From: Candidatus Bruticola sp.
GTDB taxonomy: Bacteria > Vulcanimicrobiota > Xenobia > Xenobiales > Xenobiaceae
Length of the DNA stretch: 64,000 nt
Reading direction: 5' to 3'
Assembly (NCBI GenBank): GCA_051874735.1
Contig: JBJEGD010000003.1
Span: 11,165 to 75,164, forward strand
Part shown: in pieces, positions 29,883 through 44,415 of the stretch
Layout of the letters: each line of letters starts with the position of its first letter
Numbering within the stretch: the first letter of the stretch is position 1
Translations under genes and position numbers: made by a program
The notes under the pieces: generated by a model
What the model saw: the letters and a program-made list of their open reading frames with translations, nothing else
Database searches by the model: none
Told to the model about the DNA's origin: nothing

Positions 29883-31022
29883 TTAACGGCCGCGCTTCTT
29901 TCTGCCTTTGACTGATTCATCAGCAAAAATGCGCAGGTTATCAGGACGGTAAGCATTCACGATAGCGTCGTCGTAGCTAATTAAACCAGCTTCAACTAAA
30001 CGGCTCAGCGAATACTCCATGGTGCACATGCCAAGTTCTCCGTTCATCTCTATAGTAGAGTAAACTTGATGCAGTTTATTATCGCGTATCAAAGCTGACA
30101 AAGCAGGAGCGCTAAGCAGAATTTCTCGAGCTGCAACTCGCCCACCACGATCGACTCTAGAAATTAACTTCTGAGAAATTACAGCTTTTAGACAGCTAGC
30201 TAACTGTGTGCGCGCCTGCGGCTGACGTTCGGCAGGAATAGCTCCCAAAATACGCTCCAGCGTGCCAGTTGCATCGGGACTATGCAAACTAGCCAACACC
30301 AAATGGCCCGTCTCAGCTATAGTTAAAGCCATTTCAATGGAAACGGCATCGCGCAGCTCACCGATCATAATCACATCGGGATCTTGGCGCAAACTGCTAA
30401 TACAGGCGATATCGAACGAGTTAGTATGACGTCCAACTTCACGCTGGCTGACCATACCGCGATGAGGATGCAAAATAAACTCTATAGGAGCCTCCAACGT
30501 TAAAACGTGGGCAGCTCTATTACGCAACACCGTATCCAGCAGAACGGCTAAAGTAGTAGATTTACCTACTCCAGTAGCACCAGTAACTAATACTAAACCT
30601 GAAGTAGGTAGCAGCTTATCTTTCAACTTTTCATCGAGACAGATGTCATCAAAGCTAGGAATTTGAGGAGGGATAAGGCGCAGAGCAGCCGCAGGCCCTA
30701 AACGATCGAAATAAGCATTAAGACGAAAACGCCCGATGTCGGCAACATCGACAGCTGTATCCAACTCTAAGTTCAGCTCCCACTCCTTGCGCCGCTTGTC
30801 ATCTAAAAAAGATGCAATCGTATCGCGCACTTCTAAAGCGCTCAACGGAGCGAACCCAGGCATAGCCGCTAATTCTCCGTTGAGACGAATCATAGGAGCC
30901 ATACTAGATTTCAGATGTATATCAGAAGCTTGCATACCGGCAGCACAGCGCAGCATAGCATCTGTATCTATGGCAGAACGGCGACTAGCGCTGCCTATAG
31001 GAGAGGCTGAATTTATAGTCAT
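29883..31022 (-). CDS. pilT: PilT/PilU-family type IV pilus ATPase
   Basis: ASDIHL, GATGVGKST, LRQDPDVIMIGELRD, ETGHLV. Confidence 0.88.
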   Translation of the reverse strand: MTINSASPIGSASRRSAIDTDAMLRCAAGMQASDIHLKSSMAPMIRLNGELAAMPGFAPLSALEVRDTIASFLDDKRRKEWELNLELDTAVDVADIGRFRLNAYFDRLGPAAALRLIPPQIPSFDDICLDEKLKDKLLPTSGLVLVTGATGVGKSTTLAVLLDTVLRNRAAHVLTLEAPIEFILHPHRGMVSQREVGRHTNSFDIACISSLRQDPDVIMIGELRDAVSIEMALTIAETGHLVLASLHSPDATGTLERILGAIPAERQPQARTQLASCLKAVISQKLISRVDRGGRVAAREILLSAPALSALIRDNKLHQVYSTIEMNGELGMCTMEYSLSRLVEAGLISYDDAIVNAYRPDNLRIFADESVKGRKKRGR

Positions 31023-31209: not shown

Positions 31210-32586
31210 CTATTTGCACGCTTCTTGATAAAGCTTAGCATAAGACTTAGCCGATCGGTCCCAACTAAAATCAATATTCATAGCTCTAATCTGAGTGCGA
31301 TACCAAAGTTCAGGTTTGTAGAGATAATGTTCTAAAGCACGGCCAAAAGCCGTCAGCATATCATCGACAGTATAATTACGGAACAGGTAACCAGTTCCGT
31401 CTCCGTAAGAGTTGTCTTTTATTGTATCAGCTAATCCGCCAGTCTCTCTAGCAATAGGCAAGGTACCGTACCGCATAGCAATCATTTGACTTAAACCGCA
31501 AGGTTCAAATAAACTGGGCATTAAGAACATATCGCAACCGGCGTATATGCGTCTGGCTCTGGCGGGATCGAAGCCTATATAACAAGCGACGCGTTCGGGA
31601 TGCCTTTGAGCAGCCTGAACGACTCCTTGGGAAAGATCGGGATCACCACTCCCTAAAATAATAACTCGCAAATCGGAGTAATAAACGATATCATCGATGG
31701 CTCGTAAAACTAAATCGACGCCCTTTTGGAAATCTAGGCGAGAGACTAAACCGACTAAAGGCTCTTTAAGGCCGCACAGCCCGTACTCGCGCAGCAATTC
31801 CGCCTTGCAGCGTTCTTTGCCATAAAATTCACCAGCGGTGTAATTAGCGTACAATTTAGGATCGGTGACTGGATTATAACTCTCAAGATCTATACCGTTG
31901 ACAATGCCAACTAAATCGCTGCCTTTCAAACGCAACAGCCCATCTAACCCAAAGCCGTACTCTTCGGTGCAGATTTCTTTGGCATAATTCGGACTGACAG
32001 TCGTTACTTTGTCAGCACACCAAATAGCTTGCTCCATTAGGTTCATAGGACTGTGGCCATCATAAACTCCCAGCAGTGGCCATCCATCAGGTCTTTGATT
32101 GCCCTGATGAGCCATATTATGGATAGTAAAGACTAAAGCGGGATGCTGAGGAGCAGCCCAGGCGATACGCAGAGCGGCTGCAGTATGCCAATCGTTGGCG
32201 TGGATGACGTCCGGGTACCAACCTTCTAAACGACAAGCCTCCAAGGCTGCCCGGCAGAACAGCACGAACTGCTCAACTTCATCGCCACATCCATAAACTT
32301 GAAAGCGCGATCCGAAGAAGTAGTGATTTTCAATAAAACGATCGCCATTTTGGGGATTACACCAAAGTTGGCACTCTTCGCGGCGCCAGTCCATCTTGAC
32401 TTCAAAGTTATCTAAATTTTTGCGGAGGCCCAGCTTTTCGGGATCTAGCAGGCCGTAGCGCGGCATCATTAAGCGGACGTCGTGTCCCAAACGACGCAAA
32501 GCCCCCGGCAAGGCTCCCGCCACATCGCCTAATCCGCCAACTTTTACGTAAGGAACAGCCTCGGCGGCCAAAAACAGAACTCTCAC
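31210..32586 (-). CDS. glgA: Glycogen synthase
   Basis: KVGGLGDV, HANDWH, FTIHN, PSLFEPCGLSQ. Confidence 0.96.
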   Translation of the reverse strand: MRVLFLAAEAVPYVKVGGLGDVAGALPGALRRLGHDVRLMMPRYGLLDPEKLGLRKNLDNFEVKMDWRREECQLWCNPQNGDRFIENHYFFGSRFQVYGCGDEVEQFVLFCRAALEACRLEGWYPDVIHANDWHTAAALRIAWAAPQHPALVFTIHNMAHQGNQRPDGWPLLGVYDGHSPMNLMEQAIWCADKVTTVSPNYAKEICTEEYGFGLDGLLRLKGSDLVGIVNGIDLESYNPVTDPKLYANYTAGEFYGKERCKAELLREYGLCGLKEPLVGLVSRLDFQKGVDLVLRAIDDIVYYSDLRVIILGSGDPDLSQGVVQAAQRHPERVACYIGFDPARARRIYAGCDMFLMPSLFEPCGLSQMIAMRYGTLPIARETGGLADTIKDNSYGDGTGYLFRNYTVDDMLTAFGRALEHYLYKPELWYRTQIRAMNIDFSWDRSAKSYAKLYQEACK

Positions 32587-32742: not shown

Positions 32743-34920
32743 CTATCTCATTAAACTTTCTGCTGCAGCGCACAGCAAAGCGGACTGTTCCGCATCAGCT
32801 GGGACAAAATGTTTAAATTGACACAACCTATCTAGCAAATGGATATGCTCAGCCACTTTCAAAACTTCAAGTTCAAGCATCTCTCCATCTAAATATGAAC
32901 TCCAAGGTCCCAAATCGAGCTTTGAGATCAGCGTTTTTATGTTTTGTCGAATCGCTATTTTTAAAGACGCCGCGCTTAAAGCCAACTGTTCTAATCCGTC
33001 TATATCTCTGCAGACTAATACGTAAGGATTTGCCTTAAACAAAATATCTCCTAAAGTTAGTGAGATTGCCTGCAAAAAGATCGCCCCGCTGGTGCCCATA
33101 AAATGAGAACAAATAATACAGTTATCTCCATTAGAAGTATAACACGAAGAATCAGAGGGAAAATGTAAAAAGGCTGCAAAATGGCGGGCCCACTGGGCAG
33201 ATACTGCAGGCATACTTCGGCCACTGAAGCGACAGCGGCGTAACCTTTCCGTATTGACCGCCATATCTTTACACACAGACGCAGTACTGTCGGTTACACT
33301 CAAAACTCTGTAGCTAGAACCACTAAAGTTAAAAAAGTCTCCAGGGCTGAGTCGACAATTAGCAGATAGTACACCTATAACCACATTACTGTCTCTATCA
33401 ATGACTTTTAGACCATCATCAGCCGAGCCTACCATAGAAATATTGTGGTGTATTTCCCCTCTTTCAAAAAGTTTTTTAAGTTTATCTGAACGATAATAGC
33501 CTCCCTGAGTTCTGTATTTCAACAATCCTCCCTCAGCGACGCTACGTAAAATTCTGTTGCAAACTTCCTCAGTATAAATGGAACGTAAATACGAGGGCAG
33601 ACGATGGTGCAAAGCGGCGGCGTTAATCACATCGTTGGAGCTCTGGCAGACTAAAGATATAGCCTGCTGTACCAAAACTGAACTCAAAAAAGGCGGGTGA
33701 TCGCTGCACATATTAGCTTTTTCGGCCGCTTTGACTAGATGGAAATAGCAAAGCTTCTCTAATTCATTCTTATACAAACAAAGAATATGCGGTACTTGAC
33801 CACGACGACCGCTGCGTCCCGCTCTCTGTAAAAAGGCATTGACATTAGACGGAGGCACAGTTAAAGCCACTGCATCGACGTCGCCTATATCAATACCAAC
33901 TTCTAATGTTGAAGTAGCAAAACATATGGCCGACGGCAAAGCGGCAAAATTTTTCTCTGTTTTTTCTCTCTGCTCCGTCCCCAAACTTCCATGATGAGAA
34001 AAAACAGCCTCACCGAAAGGATTTATGGTTAAATATTTCTTCACAGACACTAACTGTTCAGCTTCGGCACGAGATCGCACAAATACCAGCATTTTGCGAC
34101 AATTATGCTCGCTGCAGTATTTAATGCAGCTGCGAAATATAGCTAAACTGTCTAGATGTTCTTTCGTAATGCAGGCTGAAGCCTCGCCATCATCAACAGG
34201 ACTGAAGTTAACTTCCAGCTCTACTCCCTGTTTGTTTTCAATGATCAATCCTTGACCAGCTAAATATTTACGGTTAATTATCTCTGAATTTCCGGGAGTA
34301 GCCGTTACTGCCAAACGCTGCAAACTCTTTCCTATATAACCTAGAGTGCCCTCAATTTGCTTGGCCTTGGCACAATGGACTAAAGCATCGAGACGTTCTG
34401 CCAAAACAGCCAGCTGATCTCCACGAGCTGTCCCTTCAGCGACATGCAATTCCTCAAAAACTACCGTTTTTACTTGGATTAACTCGACAGCCCAACGACA
34501 AAGCAGCGAATCTAAAGACTCCAAAGTAGTAACTAAAACCCCAGCTTTTTTATCTCGCATAGGAGTGGGGTGATCACCCGTGCGCAGCAACACTTTTATA
34601 GAGCAGCGATCGAGAGGAGCAGAAATACGCTTAACTAGATCGTTAGCCAAAGCACGAGTAGGACAAATTATGAGAACGCATAATTTACCCGCTCGCATAG
34701 GCTCGAACCAACGCTCAGTTAGAGGAGCTAAATAAGCTTCAGTTTTACCTGAAGCCGTGCAGGAAGAAATAACAGCACTTTTGCCCAGCAAAATAGGCTC
34801 AATTACCTCAAACTGAATGGGGCGAGGCTTATAAAAACGACCGTAAAAGACACCTTTAACACGTCTTAAACACTCCATCCGACGGCGCAGCTTACTTCTG
34901 TCCCAAGTATCAAGAACCAT
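32743..34920 (-). CDS. Lhr/BrxHI-like SF2 helicase
   Basis: TASGKTEA, PTRALAND, RTGD, EELH (DExH variant), HHGSL, TSTLEVGIDIGDVD, QRAGRSGRR. Confidence 0.9.
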   Translation of the reverse strand: MVLDTWDRSKLRRRMECLRRVKGVFYGRFYKPRPIQFEVIEPILLGKSAVISSCTASGKTEAYLAPLTERWFEPMRAGKLCVLIICPTRALANDLVKRISAPLDRCSIKVLLRTGDHPTPMRDKKAGVLVTTLESLDSLLCRWAVELIQVKTVVFEELHVAEGTARGDQLAVLAERLDALVHCAKAKQIEGTLGYIGKSLQRLAVTATPGNSEIINRKYLAGQGLIIENKQGVELEVNFSPVDDGEASACITKEHLDSLAIFRSCIKYCSEHNCRKMLVFVRSRAEAEQLVSVKKYLTINPFGEAVFSHHGSLGTEQREKTEKNFAALPSAICFATSTLEVGIDIGDVDAVALTVPPSNVNAFLQRAGRSGRRGQVPHILCLYKNELEKLCYFHLVKAAEKANMCSDHPPFLSSVLVQQAISLVCQSSNDVINAAALHHRLPSYLRSIYTEEVCNRILRSVAEGGLLKYRTQGGYYRSDKLKKLFERGEIHHNISMVGSADDGLKVIDRDSNVVIGVLSANCRLSPGDFFNFSGSSYRVLSVTDSTASVCKDMAVNTERLRRCRFSGRSMPAVSAQWARHFAAFLHFPSDSSCYTSNGDNCIICSHFMGTSGAIFLQAISLTLGDILFKANPYVLVCRDIDGLEQLALSAASLKIAIRQNIKTLISKLDLGPWSSYLDGEMLELEVLKVAEHIHLLDRLCQFKHFVPADAEQSALLCAAAESLMR

Positions 34921-34950
34921 GATACAATTATTCCTAAATCATTAATTCCG

Positions 34951-36186
34951 CTAAAGCATATCACTGAGCGCAGCCTCATCAAGATCAGTCTGACCATTGA
35001 TGTACCAATTATGCAAAACTGCGATCCAAAACTTCACAAATAGACGATAACCGCCAGTAAAGATATGATCCATCATAAAATTAACAAAAACTTGCAGCGA
35101 AGCCTGTCCTCGTTCGCAATCAAACGAATGCCAATCCCAGGCAATAACAGCAGCGTCTGCCAGTTTTTGGCCTAATTCAGTAAAAAAACGTCCGTCGTTG
35201 TCGGTAGAACGTTCTAAATCGATCACTACCGATTGCGGACTAAACTTAGACATATGTAAAGGACGCTCCAGACGCTGCTGCAGAGCAGGATAAGACGCAA
35301 CATTAATAGTCATAAATTCTGGAGGCACAGCGTAAAAAAACATAACTTTGGGCAGACGTGAACTGGCGCAAAGGTCGATAAGCTGGCGCAAATTATCTCC
35401 AATGGCCTGCAAATGGCGACGAGAGGAGCTGGAAATATGCATATCAACTTCATCGAAAAGAAAAATAACTCCAGGGAACCCTAAAGAATTTAAAATACTA
35501 ACCATAGAACGCAATACGGGGAAAGCATTATCCGAAGCTATATCATCGAATACTCCAAATTTACGCAGAACTTCGCGATCGCAGCCTGCATCCCCCAACA
35601 GCCAACGCTCTAAAACAAAACTTTCATCTTCGTCATTTGACTGACAAGCTGAAAGAAACCGTCTACATACGCGACGAAAAGTATAATTTTCTACCGGAAC
35701 GTCGTCTAAATTTACATCAGCCCAAAACGGCGCCTGATCTTCGGCTACTAAACGCAAAATATTAGTAAATCCAACCACGTCGGAGGCCGGTTCCAGCGTT
35801 TTATCACTGTGAGGGCTGCTGTGCATAACAATATTAGCAGCAGCAGCTTTATAAACGCGCAGCGCATCCTCATAGGGGCACTCAGTTGGGGACAAATTTA
35901 CTGAACAAGTTAAAAAGCCGAGCCGCTGAGCGATAGAACGCACACAACTTAAAAAGTGAGTTTTGCCGGCTCCGTAGCTACCCTGCACCAAACGGAAGGC
36001 AGAACCTCCAGCCTGTCCCAGCAGACGACGTAAGTACTCGTTTTCAATAATATCTAAATGAGAATTCAGACCAACTGTTACAAACTCTAAACCATGTTCA
36101 GGCGGCTGACCGTTTTCTCCCATACAGTCAATAATTTCCTGGGCTAAACTTTTAGAAAGAGTTTTCCGACTGCTGGGAAAAAACAT
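34951..36186 (-). CDS. BrxD/DUF2791-like P-loop ATPase (copy 3)
   Basis: GQPP..G...TVG, GSYGAGKTHFL, IFLFDEVD, YPALQQRL. Confidence 0.85.
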   Translation of the reverse strand: MFFPSSRKTLSKSLAQEIIDCMGENGQPPEHGLEFVTVGLNSHLDIIENEYLRRLLGQAGGSAFRLVQGSYGAGKTHFLSCVRSIAQRLGFLTCSVNLSPTECPYEDALRVYKAAAANIVMHSSPHSDKTLEPASDVVGFTNILRLVAEDQAPFWADVNLDDVPVENYTFRRVCRRFLSACQSNDEDESFVLERWLLGDAGCDREVLRKFGVFDDIASDNAFPVLRSMVSILNSLGFPGVIFLFDEVDMHISSSSRRHLQAIGDNLRQLIDLCASSRLPKVMFFYAVPPEFMTINVASYPALQQRLERPLHMSKFSPQSVVIDLERSTDNDGRFFTELGQKLADAAVIAWDWHSFDCERGQASLQVFVNFMMDHIFTGGYRLFVKFWIAVLHNWYINGQTDLDEAALSDML

Positions 36187-36224
36187 ACTGCATACTCCTT
36201 CTCATAAAAAAATAAAAGAATATT

Positions 36225-37931
36225 TTAGAAGTTGTAATCTTCGTCATCGACATCCTCTTCTGAAGAGAAGTTGTCTTCTGCAACTAAGTACTCTTCAGAA
36301 CTTGTTCCTGCCACAGAACTACTCGCGATACCACTCCGTTCCCCACCAGCCTCAATATGTTCCATCATTTCATGAACATAGGCACCAATATTTTCTCTGC
36401 ACAATCGGGAATAATCTAACAATTCTAAAATACAGCGCAGTAGCTGGCGAGAGCCACTAATAGCCGAACGCTCCATCGCTTTATAAACAACCTGCCCCAT
36501 ATATCCGGCCGCTTTGTCATCACACAAGAAACTCGGATAAGCCCGCCTGTACATATCAATAATAATAGAACAAAGCTGCTGGTAATCGTTGTTGCTAAGA
36601 GAACTAAGCTCAATAAAGGCGTCTTCACTAAGTTGCTCTTTTAGGGCATTAAGACCACCGCCATTATCCATAGTCATGGCAAACACGCAGTAGACGCCGC
36701 TTTTATAAATATCTCGCCCAGGATTATAAGTTACCGGCACGCTTCTGTGGTTAGGGTGACCGCCGCGCTGAAACTTCTGCACACTGCGTACCTTGTGCGT
36801 TCCTAAAGCTAAAGCAGAATAGTATCCGAATAACTGATCCGCATAAGTGCGATCACGACTCGAGAGAATGTTGTACATTTCAGCTTCATCGAGGAGAAGA
36901 ACTAAACCAGTATAGCCAACCTGTCTAGCTAAATAAGCAATTCCGCTGAGGATATTAGCATAAATATGGCCAAAAGTTCGATAATCTTTTAAAGCTGGAA
37001 ACTTGTATACCGAAGGCGTATTCGGAAAGGCCCGCTGTAAAGAAGCGTTAAACTTATCTGTCAGTTCTTTTGATTCCTGACCTTCAAGCCAATCGATCAT
37101 GTGACGAATTACCGCTTCTTGGTTATCCAATTCGGACTGTTTTTCTTCAGTGCTTCCACAAGACTCTAAGTTATCTGCATAACGATTAAAGTAATAAAGA
37201 GCCGGACTCAAATAACGATGAAACTTTTCTGAACTCAACCAACCTTCAATAAGACCTAAACGGCGGGCTTCACGAAAAAGAGGCAGCAAACCGTACTTGC
37301 CGTCATGATCTGGGTAGGTCAAATTAAACATAAGCGCTCGGTAAACGCGCTGCGGATTGCCAGGACTGGCGTCCTTACTATTCAAAGCTATGCGGGCTGT
37401 TAAACACTTTTTACTTAAAGCTTTAGCTTCAATGCACTCAAGCATATGAGTTTTGCCTGCGCCGTAATCTCCCAAAAAAACACGCACTGCGCCGTCGCTG
37501 ATATTATCGAGGTCATAACAGACCATATCCATTTCTAAGCTACGTCCGATAGTGTAAAGTTCAACACGCTCACCCACTACACCGGTCCGCATGGCTTCTA
37601 AAATACGCAAAGCCACAAATTGGCCTTCTTCACCCTCGGGAAGAGCGGCAGCTCCTGTCAGCTCAGGACTATCTGAGAATTGGCAACTGTAACGGGAAAA
37701 ACGCCGACGAGGAGAGGCCACGGGCAAAACTACACCGTGAGGAGATAAATACTTGAGTTCTTTAAAGGAGCAGCACTGGTTGGTATTGCTGATAAAAAAA
37801 TTAATAAAGTAACTGCCGCCTTCTAAAATACGAAGTACTCTGCCGGTGCCGTAACGTTCGTGGGAAACATTATCACCAACAGCCAGAACTCTGGCAGTCT
37901 TTTTTTCAGGAGCGCTCTTAGAAGTCTGCAA
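36225..37931 (-). CDS. BrxD/DUF2791-like P-loop ATPase with N-terminal Tudor/SH3-like domain (copy 2)
   Basis: LEAMRTGVV...IGR, GDYGAGKTHML, VLLLDEAE; N-terminal VGDNVSHERYGTGRV. Confidence 0.85.
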   Translation of the reverse strand: MQTSKSAPEKKTARVLAVGDNVSHERYGTGRVLRILEGGSYFINFFISNTNQCCSFKELKYLSPHGVVLPVASPRRRFSRYSCQFSDSPELTGAAALPEGEEGQFVALRILEAMRTGVVGERVELYTIGRSLEMDMVCYDLDNISDGAVRVFLGDYGAGKTHMLECIEAKALSKKCLTARIALNSKDASPGNPQRVYRALMFNLTYPDHDGKYGLLPLFREARRLGLIEGWLSSEKFHRYLSPALYYFNRYADNLESCGSTEEKQSELDNQEAVIRHMIDWLEGQESKELTDKFNASLQRAFPNTPSVYKFPALKDYRTFGHIYANILSGIAYLARQVGYTGLVLLLDEAEMYNILSSRDRTYADQLFGYYSALALGTHKVRSVQKFQRGGHPNHRSVPVTYNPGRDIYKSGVYCVFAMTMDNGGGLNALKEQLSEDAFIELSSLSNNDYQQLCSIIIDMYRRAYPSFLCDDKAAGYMGQVVYKAMERSAISGSRQLLRCILELLDYSRLCRENIGAYVHEMMEHIEAGGERSGIASSSVAGTSSEEYLVAEDNFSSEEDVDDEDYNF

Positions 37932-39195
37932 AATCTTCGCTCTCCATTACTTCGCTATTGTCTTGCTGCCTGCCTACAGACTCAACATCAGTTGTACCTT
38001 CACCGCAACTGTACTCTGATTGCAAGACAGCAATCCACTGTTTTACAAAATTACGGCGCTGACCAGCGTCAAAGTTCATAGCCAAATAGTTGCTAACTAA
38101 CAGCTCTAAATTGCTCTTCTGCGTATCAATACTGTACTGCCAATTCCAAGCAACAGAAGCTGTATGCAAGATTTTTTCTCCCAAGGCTGTAAAAAATTCT
38201 TCAGGCGTTAAACCTGAATCAGTTACATCGATAGTCGGAACCTGAGGACTAGAAGCAGAGAAAGGCATAGGACTATTTAGACGCTGCTGAAGAGCGGGAT
38301 ATTCAGAAACTACATCGCTGATAAACTCCGGAGGTACAGCAAAAGCCCAAAAGAACCCAGGCAAACGCCTGCTGCCGCACATATCGACAATTTGACGCAT
38401 GTTATCAACGACATCTTTTTTCTCACGCTTGGTTCCCGAAGCGATACGATCGACCTCATCGAACAAGGCCGCTATACCAGAGTAGCCGATCAACACCGCA
38501 GCTTGAACTAAACTGGACAGCATGGAAGAAGCATTTTGACGACATATGTACTCAGGTATCGTAATACTACCTAATTTCAGCTTTTTAACTGGGTGGCCTA
38601 AAATCCACATTTCGCAAGCTTCCGCTGTATTTTCATCGTCTTCCCACAAACTTTTGACAAAATAGAGAAAAACTAACCGATAATTATTATTTTCAAAACG
38701 GCTCAGCTTGACCTTATTGAACCACAAACGACGCTCATCCGGATCGGTTACGTTCATGGCCCAATTACGGATAACAGCATTGAAGCCCATAATTTGGCAA
38801 AAGTCTTCACTATGACTAGGAGCGGCGGCAACCCGATCAGCCAGTACTCGATAGACGGCCGCTCCATCTCCGAAGCTACATTCTTTCAGTGATAATTCAA
38901 CTACTGAAGCTAAAAAACCGCGTCTCCAAGCTAAATTGCGCAAACAGGTCAAAAAATGAGTTTTGCCACTACCAAAAGAACCGCGTATAAGTTTGAAAGC
39001 TGAGCCGCGCCGTCCCTGCTGCATAACCTTCAAGTAGTGCTCGTCAAGTACTTGCAGAGGTTTATCTAGCCCAACAGTCACAAATTCTATACCGCGTTCC
39101 GGAGGGAGCCCTAAAGCCCCCATACGATCTATAATTTCAGATGCTAAAAACTCTGAAGGGCAAGCTCCAGCTTCAGACTTACACACACTAGACAA
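37918..39195 (-). CDS. BrxD/DUF2791-like P-loop ATPase (copy 1)
   Basis: GLPP..G...TVG, GSFGSGKTHFL, ALFDEVD, YPALQQRL. Confidence 0.85.
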   Translation of the reverse strand: MSSVCKSEAGACPSEFLASEIIDRMGALGLPPERGIEFVTVGLDKPLQVLDEHYLKVMQQGRRGSAFKLIRGSFGSGKTHFLTCLRNLAWRRGFLASVVELSLKECSFGDGAAVYRVLADRVAAAPSHSEDFCQIMGFNAVIRNWAMNVTDPDERRLWFNKVKLSRFENNNYRLVFLYFVKSLWEDDENTAEACEMWILGHPVKKLKLGSITIPEYICRQNASSMLSSLVQAAVLIGYSGIAALFDEVDRIASGTKREKKDVVDNMRQIVDMCGSRRLPGFFWAFAVPPEFISDVVSEYPALQQRLNSPMPFSASSPQVPTIDVTDSGLTPEEFFTALGEKILHTASVAWNWQYSIDTQKSNLELLVSNYLAMNFDAGQRRNFVKQWIAVLQSEYSCGEGTTDVESVGRQQDNSEVMESEDFADF

Positions 39196-39200
39196 AGCGA

Positions 39201-40193
39201 TTACTCCTTATTTTGGAACCACAGCGAAAGATAATATTGTCCGTTGCCAACTCCATCATCGAGCCAAAATACCTTTTCTTTGTTCTTAGTTGTCCCAATG
39301 GTGGCTGTACTTAAATTCAAGCGCAATTTTCCGCACTGTAGTCCTGCGCAGCGGCGCAAACGCACTATATCCCAGCAAAATTGCAATCGAGAATACTCTT
39401 TAAAAAGACTGGGAGCGCCATTTTCTCTAAACTTGCGGCTCTGCCTAAGCACAGACAGCACAGCCCAAATATCATGCAACGGTACTCTATCGCCCAAAGA
39501 TTTGCGCCGACAGCGCAACATAGTATTGTAAGCAGTCCAAACATCGGCAAAAAACTCTCTGCAGAACAGCTCGTTACCTTCTAAACTATCCGGCTTCACC
39601 CCATCAGCTAAATCGTCTTTATATCCGTTTCTATTGAGAAGCTCAATAAGCTCGTTGAGTGACTCAAAAAGATAATTAGCCTCTAACGGCCAGTCGTTAG
39701 CAGCCAACATACGAGCGTAAGCCACACAACAAGTTCCCTCTGCAAAATTAGGACGCAAATAAAACGAGCCGACTTTTAACTCTAAAGGTTCTGAACCAGT
39801 GCAGCGTACTTTCCATCCGAACTCAGCCGCAGCGTTCTTAAAATCTCTTCTAAAGCTATTTTCTGTTTCTTTTAAAGCCCAAGCACGCAAAGAAGCAACG
39901 CGCTCATTCAAGGAGGCAGAAACAAAAAACGGCCGTTCCTTATCTATTTCAGTGAGCGAATTATGCAATCGAACTAATGAAGAAAGACTCGAATCTTTTA
40001 AACAGCAGCTTAAAACCTCAACAAGATGCTTAAATTTATCGGCGCAAGCGCTCAACTCAGTCTGTATATCCGCAGTTATTTTTCCAGCTTCTTCCCACGA
40101 CGAGGGCTCACCAAAATAATCATCACATGTTGAACCGTTTAGTACGTTCTTATTTGCCCATGAATCAGCGGCCATCCATGCCCCCATTGACAT
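39201..40193 (-). CDS. Unknown protein, paralog of 40165-40989
   Basis: 330-aa ORF coupled to neighbours; YSRLQFCWD motif. Confidence 0.75.
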   Translation of the reverse strand: MSMGAWMAADSWANKNVLNGSTCDDYFGEPSSWEEAGKITADIQTELSACADKFKHLVEVLSCCLKDSSLSSLVRLHNSLTEIDKERPFFVSASLNERVASLRAWALKETENSFRRDFKNAAAEFGWKVRCTGSEPLELKVGSFYLRPNFAEGTCCVAYARMLAANDWPLEANYLFESLNELIELLNRNGYKDDLADGVKPDSLEGNELFCREFFADVWTAYNTMLRCRRKSLGDRVPLHDIWAVLSVLRQSRKFRENGAPSLFKEYSRLQFCWDIVRLRRCAGLQCGKLRLNLSTATIGTTKNKEKVFWLDDGVGNGQYYLSLWFQNKE

Positions 40194-40989
40194 AAATCTT
40201 TATCTGACTGTCTATATTTAGCTCGGAAGCGCTTTCCTCTATATAAATTTTACTGTCCAAATTTTGACAGCAGACCTCCTCCAAAGCTTTTATAGTATCG
40301 TACATAAACTGCGCTTTAGTGTAGCAAGCCAAGTTGTTCTTACTAGGACGACGTCCAAAATCACTGGCAGCTAAACCTATACAGTGCACTATAGGCCAAA
40401 GTTCTCGCAAAGTACAACTTTCTTCAGACTTAGATAAAACGGCCCAGGCATTATAGAGACGATTTAAGGCTAGTTTAGCAGCAGTGCGTTTACTATTTAA
40501 TTCGGTTTCAAGATTAATCAAATTGGAAGCTACAGTCCCAGCTTCAGGCGGCCATCCCTCTGCGGCTAACACCCCGCCTAACAAGACAGATACACCATTC
40601 TGACTTTCATTAAAAGACAGGCGAAACAGCCCTATAGGCAATAAAGGCAGAGGCTGACCGGGTATAACGGACAGGGCGCCGCTAATGCGAGCCTCATCGA
40701 GCTTGCAGCAATCAAATCCGAGAGCAGAAGCTTCAGAGCTAAGTTCAGCGGCAAAATTAGATATTTCTGCCGATAATTTCGCACTAACTTGTTGCTTCAA
40801 AACCTCAAGATTGACAGACTGCACCGAACTATCGAAATTAAGTTCAAGCCGACACAAGCCTCTGCCCGGCCGAGCCTCTAAAGACTTCAAGGCAGACAGC
40901 TGCTTACGGATAAGCTTAAGATAAGACTCAGCTTTACTTGCAGCTTCTGCCAACTTTATTTGCAAGGCGTCTCTATTAGTTGCCACCAT
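40165..40989 (-). CDS. Unknown protein, paralog of 39201-40193
   Basis: 274-aa ORF starting just after the glmM stop; YTKAQFMYD motif. Confidence 0.72.
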   Translation of the reverse strand: MVATNRDALQIKLAEAASKAESYLKLIRKQLSALKSLEARPGRGLCRLELNFDSSVQSVNLEVLKQQVSAKLSAEISNFAAELSSEASALGFDCCKLDEARISGALSVIPGQPLPLLPIGLFRLSFNESQNGVSVLLGGVLAAEGWPPEAGTVASNLINLETELNSKRTAAKLALNRLYNAWAVLSKSEESCTLRELWPIVHCIGLAASDFGRRPSKNNLACYTKAQFMYDTIKALEEVCCQNLDSKIYIEESASELNIDSQIKIYVNGGMDGR

Positions 40990-40995
40990 AATTGC

Positions 40996-42363
40996 CTAAC
41001 AAGAACAGCACTCTGACACAACCTGACAAACGCTGTCCACTAATCCTTTCAATTCAGGCAAAGAAGGCCCTTCGGCCATAACTCTAATTAAATTTTCTGT
41101 ACCGGAAGGACGTATTAACAAGCGTCCCTTACCCTGAAGCGCATCTTCCACGCTCTTGACCGCTTCCAAAACGCGCTCATGCTGATTCCAAGTATGTTTA
41201 TCTTTAACTTTTACATTAACCATGTATTGCGGTTTTTTAACTACAGCTTCAGCTAATTTAGATAAAGGCTGAGCGGCGTCCTTTATAATCTGGCTAAGCA
41301 TAACACCAGTCACCAAACCGTCACCCGTAGTAGCATAATCTAAAAATATAATGTGACCAGACTGTTCTCCACCTAACACAGATCCAGTACGGCGCATCTC
41401 TTCAAGAACGTAGCGATCACCAACGGCAGTTCTCGTCATTTCAAAGCCATTTTCCCGGCAAGCTTCTTCCAAGCCAAGATTAGCCATAACCGTAGTAACC
41501 AAACGTTTCCCGGGCAGATGGCCGCTCCGCTCTAACCATTTAGCGAATAAAAGAAGCATATGATCGCCATCAATCATTTGACCTAATTCATCGCAAGCTA
41601 AACATCTGTCGGCATCACCATCGAAACAGAGACCGAAATCAGCTTCTAAATCGACTACTACCTTCTGCATAGATTCAGGGTGCGTAGAACCGCACTGATT
41701 GTTAATATTGGTACCGTTGGGGTACCGATGAAGTACAGTTACTTCAGCCCCTAAATTGCGGAAAATACCTTCAGCTAAAGCGGAAGACGCACCGTTGGCG
41801 CAATCTAACACGATCTTTAAGCCATCTAAACGCAGTTTAGCCAAACTCTCAATGTAGCGAGCATACTCCCGCTGAGCCTCTTGACCGCTGATAATGGCGC
41901 CTATATTGGCCTCAACAGCCCTGGGCAGCTCATCACTTTTACCAATAAGATCCTCAAGTTCATCTTCCTGTTCATCGCTAAGTTTATAACCATCAGCTCC
42001 TATCAACTTTAGACCATTATCGTAAAAAGGATTGTGACTAGCCGAAACCACACAACCGCCCTGAGTATTGTAGCGCCTAATCGCCCAAGCGACACCAGGA
42101 GTAGGAATAATATCTAAACACAAAGCATTTACGCCAGAGCTAATCAGTCCACAGACATAACTATTTTGCAGCAGCTGACCGCTAACGCGCGTATCCCGCC
42201 CCACCGCAATGACAGGCCTTCTGCAAGTTTCAGCAGAACTACTGCTTTGAAACTGTTCCTTTACTAAATATCCATGAGCTCGCCCTACTTTGAAAGCTAA
42301 CTCCGGAGTAAGAGTGTCATTTGCTCGACCACGAATTCCATCAGTGCCAAATAAACGCGCCAT
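40996..42363 (-). CDS. glmM: Phosphoglucosamine mutase
   Basis: LFGTDGIRG, SASHNP, FDGDADR, GGEQSGH, RPSGTE. Confidence 0.97.
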   Translation of the reverse strand: MARLFGTDGIRGRANDTLTPELAFKVGRAHGYLVKEQFQSSSSAETCRRPVIAVGRDTRVSGQLLQNSYVCGLISSGVNALCLDIIPTPGVAWAIRRYNTQGGCVVSASHNPFYDNGLKLIGADGYKLSDEQEDELEDLIGKSDELPRAVEANIGAIISGQEAQREYARYIESLAKLRLDGLKIVLDCANGASSALAEGIFRNLGAEVTVLHRYPNGTNINNQCGSTHPESMQKVVVDLEADFGLCFDGDADRCLACDELGQMIDGDHMLLLFAKWLERSGHLPGKRLVTTVMANLGLEEACRENGFEMTRTAVGDRYVLEEMRRTGSVLGGEQSGHIIFLDYATTGDGLVTGVMLSQIIKDAAQPLSKLAEAVVKKPQYMVNVKVKDKHTWNQHERVLEAVKSVEDALQGKGRLLIRPSGTENLIRVMAEGPSLPELKGLVDSVCQVVSECCSC

Positions 42364-42585: not shown

Positions 42586-43548
42586 TCAACTTTTTCCGTC
42601 GGTAGCTTCCTGAACGGCCAACGGCTCCACAGTCACTGTAACCTGATTTTGGGGCACACCGTACGCTCTGTATTTACTAGGTATGAGCAGTTTTACTTTC
42701 CGACTTACAGATTTACCTGCGTACTTCAAAACGCATTTTTCTACTTCTAAGCTATCTAAAGAAGCGTTTTCAATGTCGTCACCGCTAAGATAAACCTCTT
42801 CAGGAATTACATTGACTTGGTACACCTCTCCGCTGCTACTCTCAACCTGGATATTATTTAAACTTACCTGAACTTTGCGAACGGGATAAGCAGGTATAGT
42901 AACAAAAACGCTGTTTGTGTAAATTTCTACGTTGTCAACCTTCTTGCCATTGACGTCGACGGCAGTGAGCGTGACCGCTCTAGTACTAAAACTAGATTTG
43001 ATGCCAGAAATAGAGATAGGTACAGAGACAAAAGCTACCTTATCTACATCTTCCATACTGCCTACTATGCGCACCTTACTTGGCTCAACTATAGGATTTT
43101 CCAAACGACAACTGTCACTTGCTTTGCCTATAAGACCTATTTTAACGGGTACGCTGGCAAAAGTACGCTCAGAAACGGCAGCCCATACGTGGCTGGGCTC
43201 TACTTGGGAAATCTCGGCTCCTCCAGGAGCCATAGCATCGACAGCTTCTAAACTAGTTCCAGGTTTAGTTCTCTTACTTAAATCGACTACTACGGAAATG
43301 AGCTTAGGATCGATACGATCAATTACATTTTTAGTTCCGCTAATAGTCACGGTCACTTCTTTGGGATTAATCGAGCTAATTAAATCGTTATTATTAGGGG
43401 TAAGAATATCTATAGGTTTAGTGTAAACGCGCTGAGCTGGCAGTTCGCTAATAGGTTTCGCTAGAGTTTTTACTAACACGGCTGTAACTACAGCCATGAA
43501 AAAGGCCAGCATTTTTAAACCGAAATTACTGCGCAGACGGGCAAACAT
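42586..43548 (-). CDS. cdaR: CdaR/YbbR-domain regulator of diadenylate cyclase
   Basis: TM then YbbR-like repeats (P.EVTVTISG, VEPSKVRIVG); position between cdaA and glmM. Confidence 0.88.
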   Translation of the reverse strand: MFARLRSNFGLKMLAFFMAVVTAVLVKTLAKPISELPAQRVYTKPIDILTPNNNDLISSINPKEVTVTISGTKNVIDRIDPKLISVVVDLSKRTKPGTSLEAVDAMAPGGAEISQVEPSHVWAAVSERTFASVPVKIGLIGKASDSCRLENPIVEPSKVRIVGSMEDVDKVAFVSVPISISGIKSSFSTRAVTLTAVDVNGKKVDNVEIYTNSVFVTIPAYPVRKVQVSLNNIQVESSSGEVYQVNVIPEEVYLSGDDIENASLDSLEVEKCVLKYAGKSVSRKVKLLIPSKYRAYGVPQNQVTVTVEPLAVQEATDGKS

Positions 43549-44415
43549 CTACTCGTTTCCTCCGATCGCATCGCCAATAGTACGGAAAATATTGAAAGTA
43601 CCAAACCGGCGGCGTTTATCTTTATTCCATTCAGCCATAAGCTCTCTAGCCAAAGCCTTACGAACTTGCGCTTCTTCAACCATAGGCTGACTAAAAGTTC
43701 CGTCTTTGGCAATACGTATTTCTCCAGTTTCTTCAGAGACTACAACCACAATAGAATCACTCTGTTCAGTTATACCTATAGCGGCCCTATGCCTGGTGCC
43801 GAAGCGTGAATCTACTACAGAATCGGTAAGAGGTAAGTAACAGGCCGCCGCCAGCAGACAACCATCACGAATTACTACAGCTCCATCGTGTAAAGGTGTT
43901 TTGGGACGGAAAATAGTCTGCAGCAATTTAGCAGATATAAAACCGTTAACTATCTGGCCAGTTTCAACTACTTCCTGTAAACCGGTTTCCTGCTCTAAAA
44001 CGATCAGAGCTCCAAAACGCGTAGTTGAAAGATTGTAAGCAGCCAAAGCTATTTCATCAATTATGCGCTTTAATTCTTCCTGACCGACCTCACTTATGCC
44101 GTTAGACGCTATTAACCCTTGCTGCCCTAAACGGGTTAACGCCCGGCGCAGTTCAGGTTGAAAGACAACTGGCAAAGCCACCAAAGTAGAGACTAAAATA
44201 CCGTTAAGTATATAACTGAGCGTCTGTAGTCTGGCAAAATAAGCAATACCTTGCAGAATTAACAAAGCAGCAATGCCCTGAAGAATCTGCAAAGCTCTCG
44301 TCCCTTTTATAAGTAACAGAACGTAATAGAAAAAAACTGAAACCAGAATTACATCTATAAAATCCCAATAAGTTAAATCTCGAAGTAAAGCGTATACTCG
44401 TTCAAGCAAACTCAA
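43549..44415 (-). CDS. cdaA: Diadenylate cyclase CdaA
   Basis: Three TMs, FQPELRRAL, PLHDGA, GTRHRAA, VSEETG. Confidence 0.96.
   Translation of the reverse strand: MSLLERVYALLRDLTYWDFIDVILVSVFFYYVLLLIKGTRALQILQGIAALLILQGIAYFARLQTLSYILNGILVSTLVALPVVFQPELRRALTRLGQQGLIASNGISEVGQEELKRIIDEIALAAYNLSTTRFGALIVLEQETGLQEVVETGQIVNGFISAKLLQTIFRPKTPLHDGAVVIRDGCLLAAACYLPLTDSVVDSRFGTRHRAAIGITEQSDSIVVVVSEETGEIRIAKDGTFSQPMVEEAQVRKALARELMAEWNKDKRRRFGTFNIFRTIGDAIGGNE

Follow-up and report, generated by a model that had tools for sequence, protein, structure and literature searches.

A six-gene locus of Candidatus Bruticola is very probably an expanded copy of an unnamed four-gene ATPase-helicase cassette

What kind of system places three BrxD-like ATPases and an Lhr-like helicase, together with two proteins that lack annotation, between housekeeping genes of a bacterial chromosome? 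The question is raised by the window analyzed here, a 64,000-nt stretch of contig JBJEGD010000003.1 (GCA_051874735.1) from Candidatus Bruticola sp., class Xenobia, in which six open reading frames (ORFs), U1, U2, A1, A2, A3, and Hel in order of transcription, occupy positions 32743-40989 of the minus strand. Confirming an earlier note on this DNA, which had described six co-oriented ORFs with all gaps under 40 nt, the ORF coordinates from U1 to Hel gave overlaps of 29 nt (U1/U2) and 14 nt (A1/A2) and gaps of 5 nt (U2/A1), 38 nt (A2/A3), and 30 nt (A3/Hel). We conclude with high confidence that these genes represent an enlarged form, fixed in the chromosome, of an unnamed four-gene cassette composed of a U protein, two classes of BrxD-like ATPase (A-alpha and A-beta), and an Lhr-like helicase, and this confidence extends to both the identity of the cassette and the evolutionary picture presented below. 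Genomes, loci, genera, and families are referred to by working labels (G and L numbers, g1 to g9, and f1 to f4, respectively), with the window belonging to genus g1 of family f1.

Range and expansion of the cassette

The earlier note had taken the 2+3+1 arrangement as the basic unit. Our neighborhood surveys instead revealed it to be a derived expansion, found in two genera, of a widespread 1+2+1 cassette. With A3 as the query, we detected matches in 40 of 41 related genomes, including all 24 of high quality, the weaker matches being ordinary BrxD-like genes. A first survey covered 20 neighborhoods from relatives, with ORFs labeled by BLASTP against the window proteins. Among these loci, the full six-gene order was observed in the g1 genomes G003, G005, and G008 and in G015 of genus g4, in which the U1 slot is filled by a 261-aa ORF; G002 was cut by contig ends. 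Genera g2, g3, and g5 of family f1 carried U, one A-alpha, A-beta, and Hel, likewise located between glmM and glgA. In families f2 and f3, whose genomes are 5-9 Mb in size, U, A-alpha, and A-beta occurred without an adjacent helicase. A full-length helicase orthologue (32-41% identity over residues ~18-720) was found on another contig in 5 of 5 f2 and f3 genomes searched, with scores much higher than those of any other Lhr-like helicases encoded there.

A second survey, in which species-representative genomes were scanned with the U profile and ORFs were labeled, yielded 50 loci. Eight of these contained the complete six-gene order and one a truncated form of it, all from gut metagenome-assembled genomes (MAGs) of the window's genus. 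Contiguous U-A-alpha-A-beta-Hel cassettes accounted for 19 loci, and a further 12 contained U-A-alpha-A-beta with room downstream yet no adjacent helicase; the remaining 10 were not classifiable owing to contig ends. Thus, the six genes do co-occur elsewhere, as the proposal in the earlier note required, with 8 complete loci from other genomes and one more in a sister genus.

Judged by record titles, the four-gene loci came from Eremiobacterota/Vulcanimicrobiota (Xenobia), Desulfatiglandales, Desulfobacterales, strain NaphS2, Myxococcota, and Planctomycetota, with U, A-alpha, and A-beta in Chloroflexota loci, although some titles are unreliable for range: the "Armatimonadetes" record L069 is G109, a genome of the window's class, and L051, L053, L061, and L077, which bear the title "Burkholderiales," are contigs belonging to G011, G018, G030, and G034, also of that class. 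These findings indicate that cassette composition and gene order hold across several phyla. Of 151 genomes sampled within the phylum of the window, 33 carried U, and these belong to a single class (0 of 108 in other families). The per-family counts were 17 of 18 for f1, 3 of 5 for f2 (both misses being genomes only 64-65% complete), 9 of 16 for f3, and 3 of 3 for f4; within f3, U was found in 2 of 8 genomes of g7, 5 of 6 of g8, and 2 of 2 of g9. In the desulfobacterotal order that contains the Desulfatiglandales locus L059, only 4 of 81 sampled genomes carried U, that one included. The cassette is therefore patchy in this order, like an accessory element, whereas it is nearly fixed in Xenobia.

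The surveys also indicate how the window's version arose. Single-copy A-alpha proteins scored 263-293 bits against A1 and 298-323 bits against A3, making them about equally near to both, which fits a duplication inside family f1. Duplication of U produced U1 and U2, and duplication of A-alpha produced A1 and A3, in the genus of the window and in a sister genus.

Proteins of the cassette

All three ATPases, A1 (37918-39195, minus strand, as for all six genes; 425 aa), A2 (36225-37931; 568 aa), and A3 (34951-36186; 411 aa), retain the Walker A motifs reported in the earlier note, which are readable in the translations as GSFGSGKT, GDYGAGKT, and GSYGAGKT, respectively, along with Walker B motifs (FDEVD, LLDEAE, and FDEVD). 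The Walker motifs sit in invariant columns of the ATPase alignment, and A3 keeps all invariant columns. The DUF2791-like context suggested previously was supported by Pfam PF10923 (BrxC_BrxD, DUF2791), which all three passed at a cut-off of 22.2 bits (A1, E 1.1e-32 and 114 bits; A2, 4.7e-23 and 82.2; A3, 5.9e-38 and 131.3). The PADLOC BrxD model matched A1 (5.8e-27) and A3 (4.6e-30), scoring higher than the SngB model, which matched A1 (4.1e-15), A2 (4.5e-17), and A3 (3.4e-22). No match to the A-alpha profile was detected among PDB sequences at E<=0.01.

The three ATPases are not equivalent. A1 and A3 share 39% identity over 400 residues (E 1e-85), and A2 shares only 23% with A3 (E 1e-9). This near and far spacing defines two ATPase classes: A1, the positional orthologue of the ancestral A-alpha, and A3, its derived duplicate, form a recent A-alpha pair of BrxD-like AAA+ (ATPases associated with diverse cellular activities) proteins, and A2, which consists of a Tudor domain, a linker, an AAA+ core, and an acidic C-terminal tail, represents a distinct, old paralogue class, A-beta. 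At the C terminus of A-alpha proteins from Xenobia, Desulfobacterota, and Myxococcota is an acidic tail, ...[DE][DE]-F-x-D-[VAF], which is present in A1 (SEDFADF; 37918-37960) and lost from A3, and A2 proteins of the window's genus have gained an acidic ...DDEDYNF tail (36225-36260). The acidic tail may serve as a docking peptide; tails of this kind resemble the docking tip of single-stranded DNA-binding protein (SSB).

The N-terminal block of A-beta, G-D-x-V-x-H-x-x-[YFW]-G-x-G-x-V...GG+...V-x-F, is joined to the AAA+ core by a variable, often Pro/Glu-rich linker. In A2, it corresponds to a Tudor/SH3-like domain of 53 aa, not noticed in the earlier note, encoded at 37731-37889 on the minus strand (about residues 15-65). 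We found the block in 22 of 25 A-beta orthologues aligned with A2; of the other three, L060 and L063 lack it and L087 has only a remnant. When a profile built from 14 of these segments was compared with PDB sequences, 9 of the 11 rows at E<=10 were PcrA/UvrD Tudor domains or whole PcrA/UvrD chains, with E-values of 4e-4 to 5e-3 for the PcrA/UvrD Tudor chains, among them 9dqs_A (4.2e-4), 5dma_A (7.8e-4), and 7egt_B (2e-3); the two other rows were Mfd (E 1.1) and one ribosomal protein. Pfam PF21196 (PcrA_UvrD_tudor) matched 5 of the 14 members at E<=1 and PF02559 (CarD_TRCF_RID) 6 of 14, all below the gathering score. The AlphaFold2 model of the 53-residue domain (predicted local distance difference test [pLDDT] score of 93) has five strands, and its best Foldseek rows were Agenet, PWWP, and Tudor barrels at a probability of 1.00, including the UvrD1 Tudor 9dqs_C with template modeling (TM) scores of 0.77/0.75, a root mean square deviation of 1.6 A, and 30% identity. 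A-beta has a Tudor fold whose nearest sequence relative is the PcrA/UvrD Tudor that binds RNA polymerase.

In PcrA, this domain contacts the beta subunit of RNA polymerase, and PcrA suppresses R-loops, as stated in the accessible portion of PMC8318588. H681A, W684A, K712A, and L714A were introduced on its conserved surface, and point mutations there strongly diminish the binding of RNA polymerase according to the available part of PMC5397179. Counting from the construct 673-724, the invariant His and the next aromatic residue of the A-beta block would map by alignment to PcrA H681 and W684.

Downstream of the ATPases, Hel (32743-34920; 725 aa) contains the DEAD and Helicase_C domains expected of the superfamily 2 (SF2) Lhr-like helicase that the earlier note had recognized. 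Hel matched the PADLOC models BrxHI (2.5e-59) and SngC (2.1e-52) and fell below the cut-offs of all NCBIfam helicase equivalogs. Its best solved relatives were 5v9x_A (877 aa; 1.2e-20) and 7lhl_A (1508 aa; 5.5e-20), which we take to be mycobacterial Lhr-Core and full-length Lhr, lengths that agree with those in the Lhr papers. SF2 motifs I-VI are conserved in 16 aligned Hel orthologues, and the C-terminal 300 residues are poorly conserved among them. Motif II reads EELH in the six-gene lineages (34400-34430 in the window; also L042, L043, and L049) and, among the 12 four-gene orthologues in the alignment, DE[LVI]H in 11, with DDVH in two Desulfobacterales (L068 and L076). We also observed that this Asp-to-Glu change coincides with the duplications of the ATPase and U. 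In the part of PMC5758891 available, Lhr is described as a 3'-5' single-stranded DNA (ssDNA) translocase that unwinds RNA:DNA duplexes.

The fourth component, U, is represented in the window by U2 (39201-40193; 330 aa), the orthologue of the cassette's founding protein, and by U1 (40165-40989; 274 aa), a divergent member of the same family. The two had been proposed to be paralogous, and they are true but distant paralogues: BLASTP gave only a weak match (E 6e-4 across 63 aa), but hhalign aligned the U1 family (9 rows) with the U2 family (19 rows) over 212 columns at a probability of 98.9% and E 3.5e-17. Because the hhalign match stops at residue 279 of U2, U1 lacks the most conserved part of the family, a C-terminal RLxLGTATIGTTxxK...GQYYLS motif that is kept in U2 and lost in U1. 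Across the alignment of 19 U sequences, 24 columns are invariant.

The novelty claimed for these two accessory proteins also stands, as no Pfam, NCBIfam, PADLOC, or PHROG model exists for the family. At E<=0.01, neither U1 nor U2 matched Pfam, PADLOC, or NCBIfam, and among PHROGs at E<=1, U1 had no match and U2 had one at chance level (phrog_12775, E 0.06). The U profile found nothing among PDB sequences below E 0.15, and in the ESM Atlas, it matched solely unnamed "hypothetical protein" clusters. The family is large: at the 50% identity level, the profile matched 965 representative clusters with E<=1e-3, and 634 with E<=1e-10. An AlphaFold2 model of U2 (pLDDT of 86) shows a long bundle of helices at the N terminus, a sheet of five strands, and, at the C terminus, a helix/beta-hairpin module that contains the conserved motif. 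By VIA-align, residues ~31-117 gave generic helical-bundle matches (Z<=8.7), and residues 203-330 matched seven human origin recognition complex (ORC) entries at chain A residues ~762-850 (Z 5.4-6.4), which we take to be the winged-helix domain of ORC1. A complex prediction for A1 with residues 30-330 of U2 scored 0.22, relative to a mark of 0.32, a value that speaks neither for nor against binding.

Genomic setting, mechanism, and role

To compare selection across the locus, we used Nei-Gojobori counts of nonsynonymous and synonymous substitution rates (dN/dS) between the window and the same-genus genome G008; the resulting values are rough, as dS was 0.9-1.7 and near saturation. The enzymes gave 0.050 (A1), 0.057 (A2), 0.071 (A3), and 0.068 (Hel), and U1 and U2 gave 0.155 and 0.193, respectively, an evolution about three times as fast as that of the ATPases and helicase. 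Since all six values lie within 0.05-0.19, the ORFs are real genes kept by purifying selection. The flanking genes cdaA, cdaR, glmM, and glgA ranged from 0.019 to 0.073.

These flanks are housekeeping genes, as the earlier note had stated for glmM and glgA and Pfam confirmed. Upstream on the minus strand lie cdaA (43549-44415; DAC/CdaA_N), cdaR (42586-43548; YbbR), and glmM (40996-42363; PGM_PMM I-IV), whose stop codon precedes the U1 start by 6 nt. Downstream on the same strand, 156 nt 3' of the Hel gene, is glgA (31210-32586; Glyco_transf_5, E 1.5e-62). The cdaA-cdaR-glmM order upstream of the cassette is conserved in all five genera of f1, and cdaA (c-di-AMP cyclase)-cdaR (YbbR)-glmM is a type of gene set known from Firmicutes. 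In both genomes of genus g2, glmM and U form a single open frame. That of G010 (L028:6959-9166) spans 735 aa as an ORF call and 745 aa as the open frame reported by the tool, and that of G014 (C231) spans 632 aa. Two representative proteins, P0011 (729 aa) and P0024 (733 aa), likewise consist of PGM_PMM domains I-IV followed by a U domain. A search for longer fused forms of U found none at E<=1e-5, a weak negative given that the same search missed the 729-aa GlmM-U fusion. The fusion may represent either a harmless read-through of neighboring genes or a hint of a link between U and GlmM.

One explanation of this setting is that the module works with cdaA-cdaR-glmM in the supply of cell wall precursors or in c-di-AMP signaling, as the 6-nt junction, the synteny throughout f1, and the fusions could suggest. 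We regard this as hardly credible. Fusion of adjacent, cotranscribed genes can follow the loss of a stop codon without functional meaning, the cassette enzymes are nucleic-acid motors, and the neighbors are different outside f1. In f2 and f3, the cassette is surrounded by unrelated genes. In Desulfobacterota (L058:4146-7740 and 11 further loci), two conserved co-oriented genes precede U to give a six-gene SNF2-X-U-A-alpha-A-beta-Hel order. The SNF2 helicase of this variant is ~800 aa long, is 53-86% identical among loci, and has DrmD as its best PADLOC match; the adjacent protein X (390 aa) has no family match and a C-terminal cysteine cluster. We considered X as a paralogue of U and rejected this candidate (hhalign probability of 0.2%).

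Scans for regulatory signals were uninformative on the limits of the operon: promoter-like counts in the operon region were not above those of shuffled sequence, and terminator-like sites, although numbering 28 with 14.7 expected, were scattered within genes. Farther out in the window, we noted a pilT-like ATPase gene at 29883-31022, downstream of glgA, and a cluster of four tRNA genes (Gly-GCC twice, Leu-TAG, and Lys-CTT) at 584-1018 on the minus strand.

The composition of the cassette allows a mechanism to be proposed, in which an ATPase-controlled helicase is linked to RNA polymerase. The existence of two conserved ATPase classes implies that A-alpha and A-beta would form an AAA+ hetero-oligomer resembling ORC/Cdc6. 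BrxD itself is described, in the portion of PMC12839542 that could be accessed, as an ORC/Cdc6-type AAA+ ATPase without extra domains that is tightly linked to BrxHI and proposed to be its loader or activator. The Tudor domain implies docking, such that it would anchor A-beta on RNA polymerase or on some protein bearing the same helicase-interaction motif. An Lhr-type motor in turn implies action on ssDNA or RNA:DNA hybrids, onto which ATP binding and hydrolysis would load or license the 3'-5' helicase at transcription complexes. U is likely to be a recognition or regulatory subunit because it is the fastest-evolving and sole non-enzymatic part; it would provide recognition of nucleic acids or targets, possibly via its winged-helix-like C-terminal module, and would thereby fill the part played by TerB in Shango and by the BREX (bacteriophage exclusion) core in BREX-2. 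The duplicates may have divided their roles, A1 having kept the tail that A3 lost and U2 the motif that U1 lost, and these split features suggest that U and A-alpha pair in two ways around a single A-beta and a single helicase. As a whole, an expanded cassette that is linked to RNA polymerase and a sister of Shango appears to us the best explanation of the locus, slightly more likely than not. The mechanism taken on its own, which is pieced together from the parts, is more tentative.

Several observations weigh against these interpretations. Binding of RNA polymerase by the A-beta Tudor is suggested by analogy, and Tudor folds bind many partners. The A2 domain scored 18.7 bits (E 0.0016) against PF21196, below its cut-off of 23.9, and Foldseek E-values for the Tudor model were only ~1e-2, with none below 1e-3, as expected at 53 residues. 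The U2 model had no PDB match by Foldseek at E<=0.001, leaving U without a significant structural relative, and we treat the ORC-like winged-helix likeness of its modeled C-terminal part as no more than a weak lead. The A-alpha tree, despite support of 100 for the A1 clade, 100 for the A3 clade, and 99 for the single-copy Xenobia clade, does not settle where A1 and A3 branch, given its long stems and a warning of long-branch effects, and for this reason, their duplication is argued from synteny and bit scores. With respect to a defense role, GC content within the operon (0.42-0.46) is even with that of the flanks, and a mobile defense island of the usual type is made less likely here by the housekeeping flanks and by vertical inheritance across the class. 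Among 82 proteins flanking 16 loci outside the gut genus and family f1, of which one locus (L069) is of the window's class, PADLOC at E<=1e-10 matched 12 models with one protein each, including SspH, mad8, PDC-S70, PDC-S01, HNH, and GlgB, which is a faint defense signal that has no baseline.

In what process the cassette acts is a separate matter. The earlier note had envisaged a self-contained ATPase-helicase machine for phage defense or DNA repair; its self-contained nature is supported in that no BREX core or TerB partner was found in the locus. We consider the chances of a role in defense against phages or foreign DNA to be evenly balanced. Endogenous genome maintenance in this lineage is a less probable role. 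In this alternative, the Xenobia cassette would have turned into, or would have been from the start, a maintenance machine and not an immune system, its RNA-polymerase-associated helicase removing R-loops, stalled transcription complexes, or conflicts between transcription and replication, which we likewise regard as possible though rather doubtful. Consistent with maintenance, U is near-universal in the class (f1, f4, g8, and g9), all five f1 genera have it at one site, with cdaA-cdaR-glmM on one side and glgA on the other, and the cassette is kept and even expanded in reduced genomes of 2.2-2.9 Mb. In addition, all five f2 and f3 genomes searched retain the unlinked helicase orthologue, the ATPases and helicase match the housekeeping flanks in dN/dS, GlmM-U fusion proteins exist, and the PcrA/UvrD-type Tudor and Lhr-type helicase are both known from repair and R-loop control. 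In contrast, the characterized relatives of the ATPase-helicase pair, Shango and BREX-2, all act in phage defense. Moreover, U1 and U2 evolve about three times as fast as the enzymes, as is often the case for sensor or specificity subunits of conflict systems, and the sparseness of the cassette elsewhere (4 of 81 in the desulfobacterotal order) and its absence from most of g7 (present in 2 of 8) would be unexpected for an essential factor. This patchiness weakens the maintenance alternative and fits an accessory module.

The two roles could also have followed one another. We entertain as a speculative and rather unlikely possibility that the cassette is a transcription-coupled surveillance machine, in which an ORC/Cdc6-like heteromer would ride RNA polymerase via the Tudor domain and load the Lhr-like helicase on nucleic acid laid bare at transcription complexes while U, as a winged-helix-like subunit, performs recognition, and that this former defense-type module was domesticated to core maintenance in Xenobia and then elaborated by subunit duplication. 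If true, this would document a passage from an immunity gene set to a housekeeping machine. The Xenobia copies offer a natural experiment in this regard, since a module of accessory character in other lineages has a settled place in a housekeeping operon, persists in gut genomes of reduced size, and has been duplicated with divided features, and they bear on how defense-type machines are recruited to core functions. More broadly, Shango and BrxD-BrxHI are validated or widespread anti-phage modules of unknown mechanism, for which a sister cassette offers two features open to testing: ATPase paralogues that form an obligate pair, and a Tudor domain like the one by which PcrA/UvrD attaches to RNA polymerase. 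Taken together, the two suggest that ATPase-helicase modules as a group may act at transcription complexes, and with U, they bring into view a large family that has had no annotation.

Comparison with known systems

The A-beta Tudor resembles that of PcrA/UvrD in its best sequence matches, in its five-stranded fold, and in the His and aromatic residue conserved by alignment. However, the PcrA/UvrD domain is located at the C terminus of a superfamily 1 helicase, whereas that of A-beta is at the N terminus of an AAA+ ATPase. Bacterial Lhr proteins are the closest solved relatives of Hel and share SF2 motifs I-VI, but they are ~1500 aa long with a large C-terminal domain, which Hel, at 725 aa and with EELH as motif II, does not possess.

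A further question is whether the locus simply belongs to Shango or BREX type 2, with its partners located elsewhere or too diverged for detection. The PADLOC matches of the ATPases to BrxD and SngB and of the helicase to BrxHI and SngC would be consistent with membership, as would the existence in the class of canonical BrxD-like and helicase pairs, one directly after a PglZ gene. We consider membership extremely improbable. In agreement with the earlier note, which had recognized no BREX core or TerB partner, we found none in the locus, and neither PglZ (PF08665) nor TerB (PF05099) was detected in the window's own genome assembly (92.4% complete), with controls responding in the TerB search; TerB_C also had no match there, which is uninformative given that its controls were silent too. 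BrxC, PglX, and PglW were absent from the six genes and their flanks, with no genome-wide search made for these three. U1 and U2 match no SngA, TerB, or other model, and A1, A2, and A3 reached only 92.4, 46.1, and 101.8 bits against the NCBIfam BrxD equivalog NF033438, which has a cut-off of 350. Furthermore, the cassette has two to three ATPases and not one, carries a Tudor domain on A-beta, and travels as its own unit in several phyla.

Other Xenobia genomes also carry ordinary BrxD-like and helicase pairs. In G034, which has the cassette as well, we noted a BREX type 2-like fragment in which a BrxD-like ATPase and then a BrxHI-like helicase come directly after a PglZ-domain protein (L096:3426-9688). 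The occurrence of such pairs in the same class, one of them right after PglZ, indicates that the cassette is an entity separate from BREX-2. None of the genes upstream of seven other BrxD-like and helicase pairs in the class encodes TerB; these genes encode beta-helix/NosD, a PglZ protein, DUF6159, GNAT, or proteins of no family. Two pairs are preceded by beta-helix/NosD proteins of ~570 aa (L093:3802-5517 and L095:121-1833), a combination that to our knowledge has not been described in the literature.

Shango is a phage defense system that has been demonstrated experimentally and whose mechanism is unknown, according to the available parts of 10.1101/2022.11.11.516204 and 10.1101/2022.05.11.491447. 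The cassette is like Shango in that a non-enzymatic protein, a PF10923-type ATPase, and an Lhr-like SF2 helicase follow one another in one operon, and in that the SngB and SngC models match its ATPases and helicase. The first protein of Shango, SngA, has a TerB domain, whereas U lacks TerB and belongs to an unrelated, unannotated family. Shango also has three genes with a single ATPase, whereas the cassette always contains two distinct ATPase classes (and three ATPases in the window), one of which, A-beta, carries a Tudor domain, and in Xenobia, the operon is fixed in a housekeeping context.

The likeness to BREX type 2 rests with BrxD-BrxHI, which provides the best PADLOC matches of the cassette ATPases and helicase and is likewise a linked ATPase-helicase pair. 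In contrast to BREX type 2, the cassette has no PglZ, BrxC, PglX, or PglW at the locus, does not reach the BrxD equivalog cut-off, contains U in addition, and has a Tudor domain on A-beta, BrxD being described without an extra domain in the accessible portion of PMC12839542. The literature available to us, including parts of PMC12839542 and 10.1101/2025.09.30.679545, contained no two-ATPase, Tudor-bearing relative of Shango or BrxD-BrxHI, although the supplementary tables of PMC12839542 could hold such loci. On these comparisons, the cassette is a sister of Shango and of the BrxD-BrxHI pair of BREX type 2 and a member of neither.

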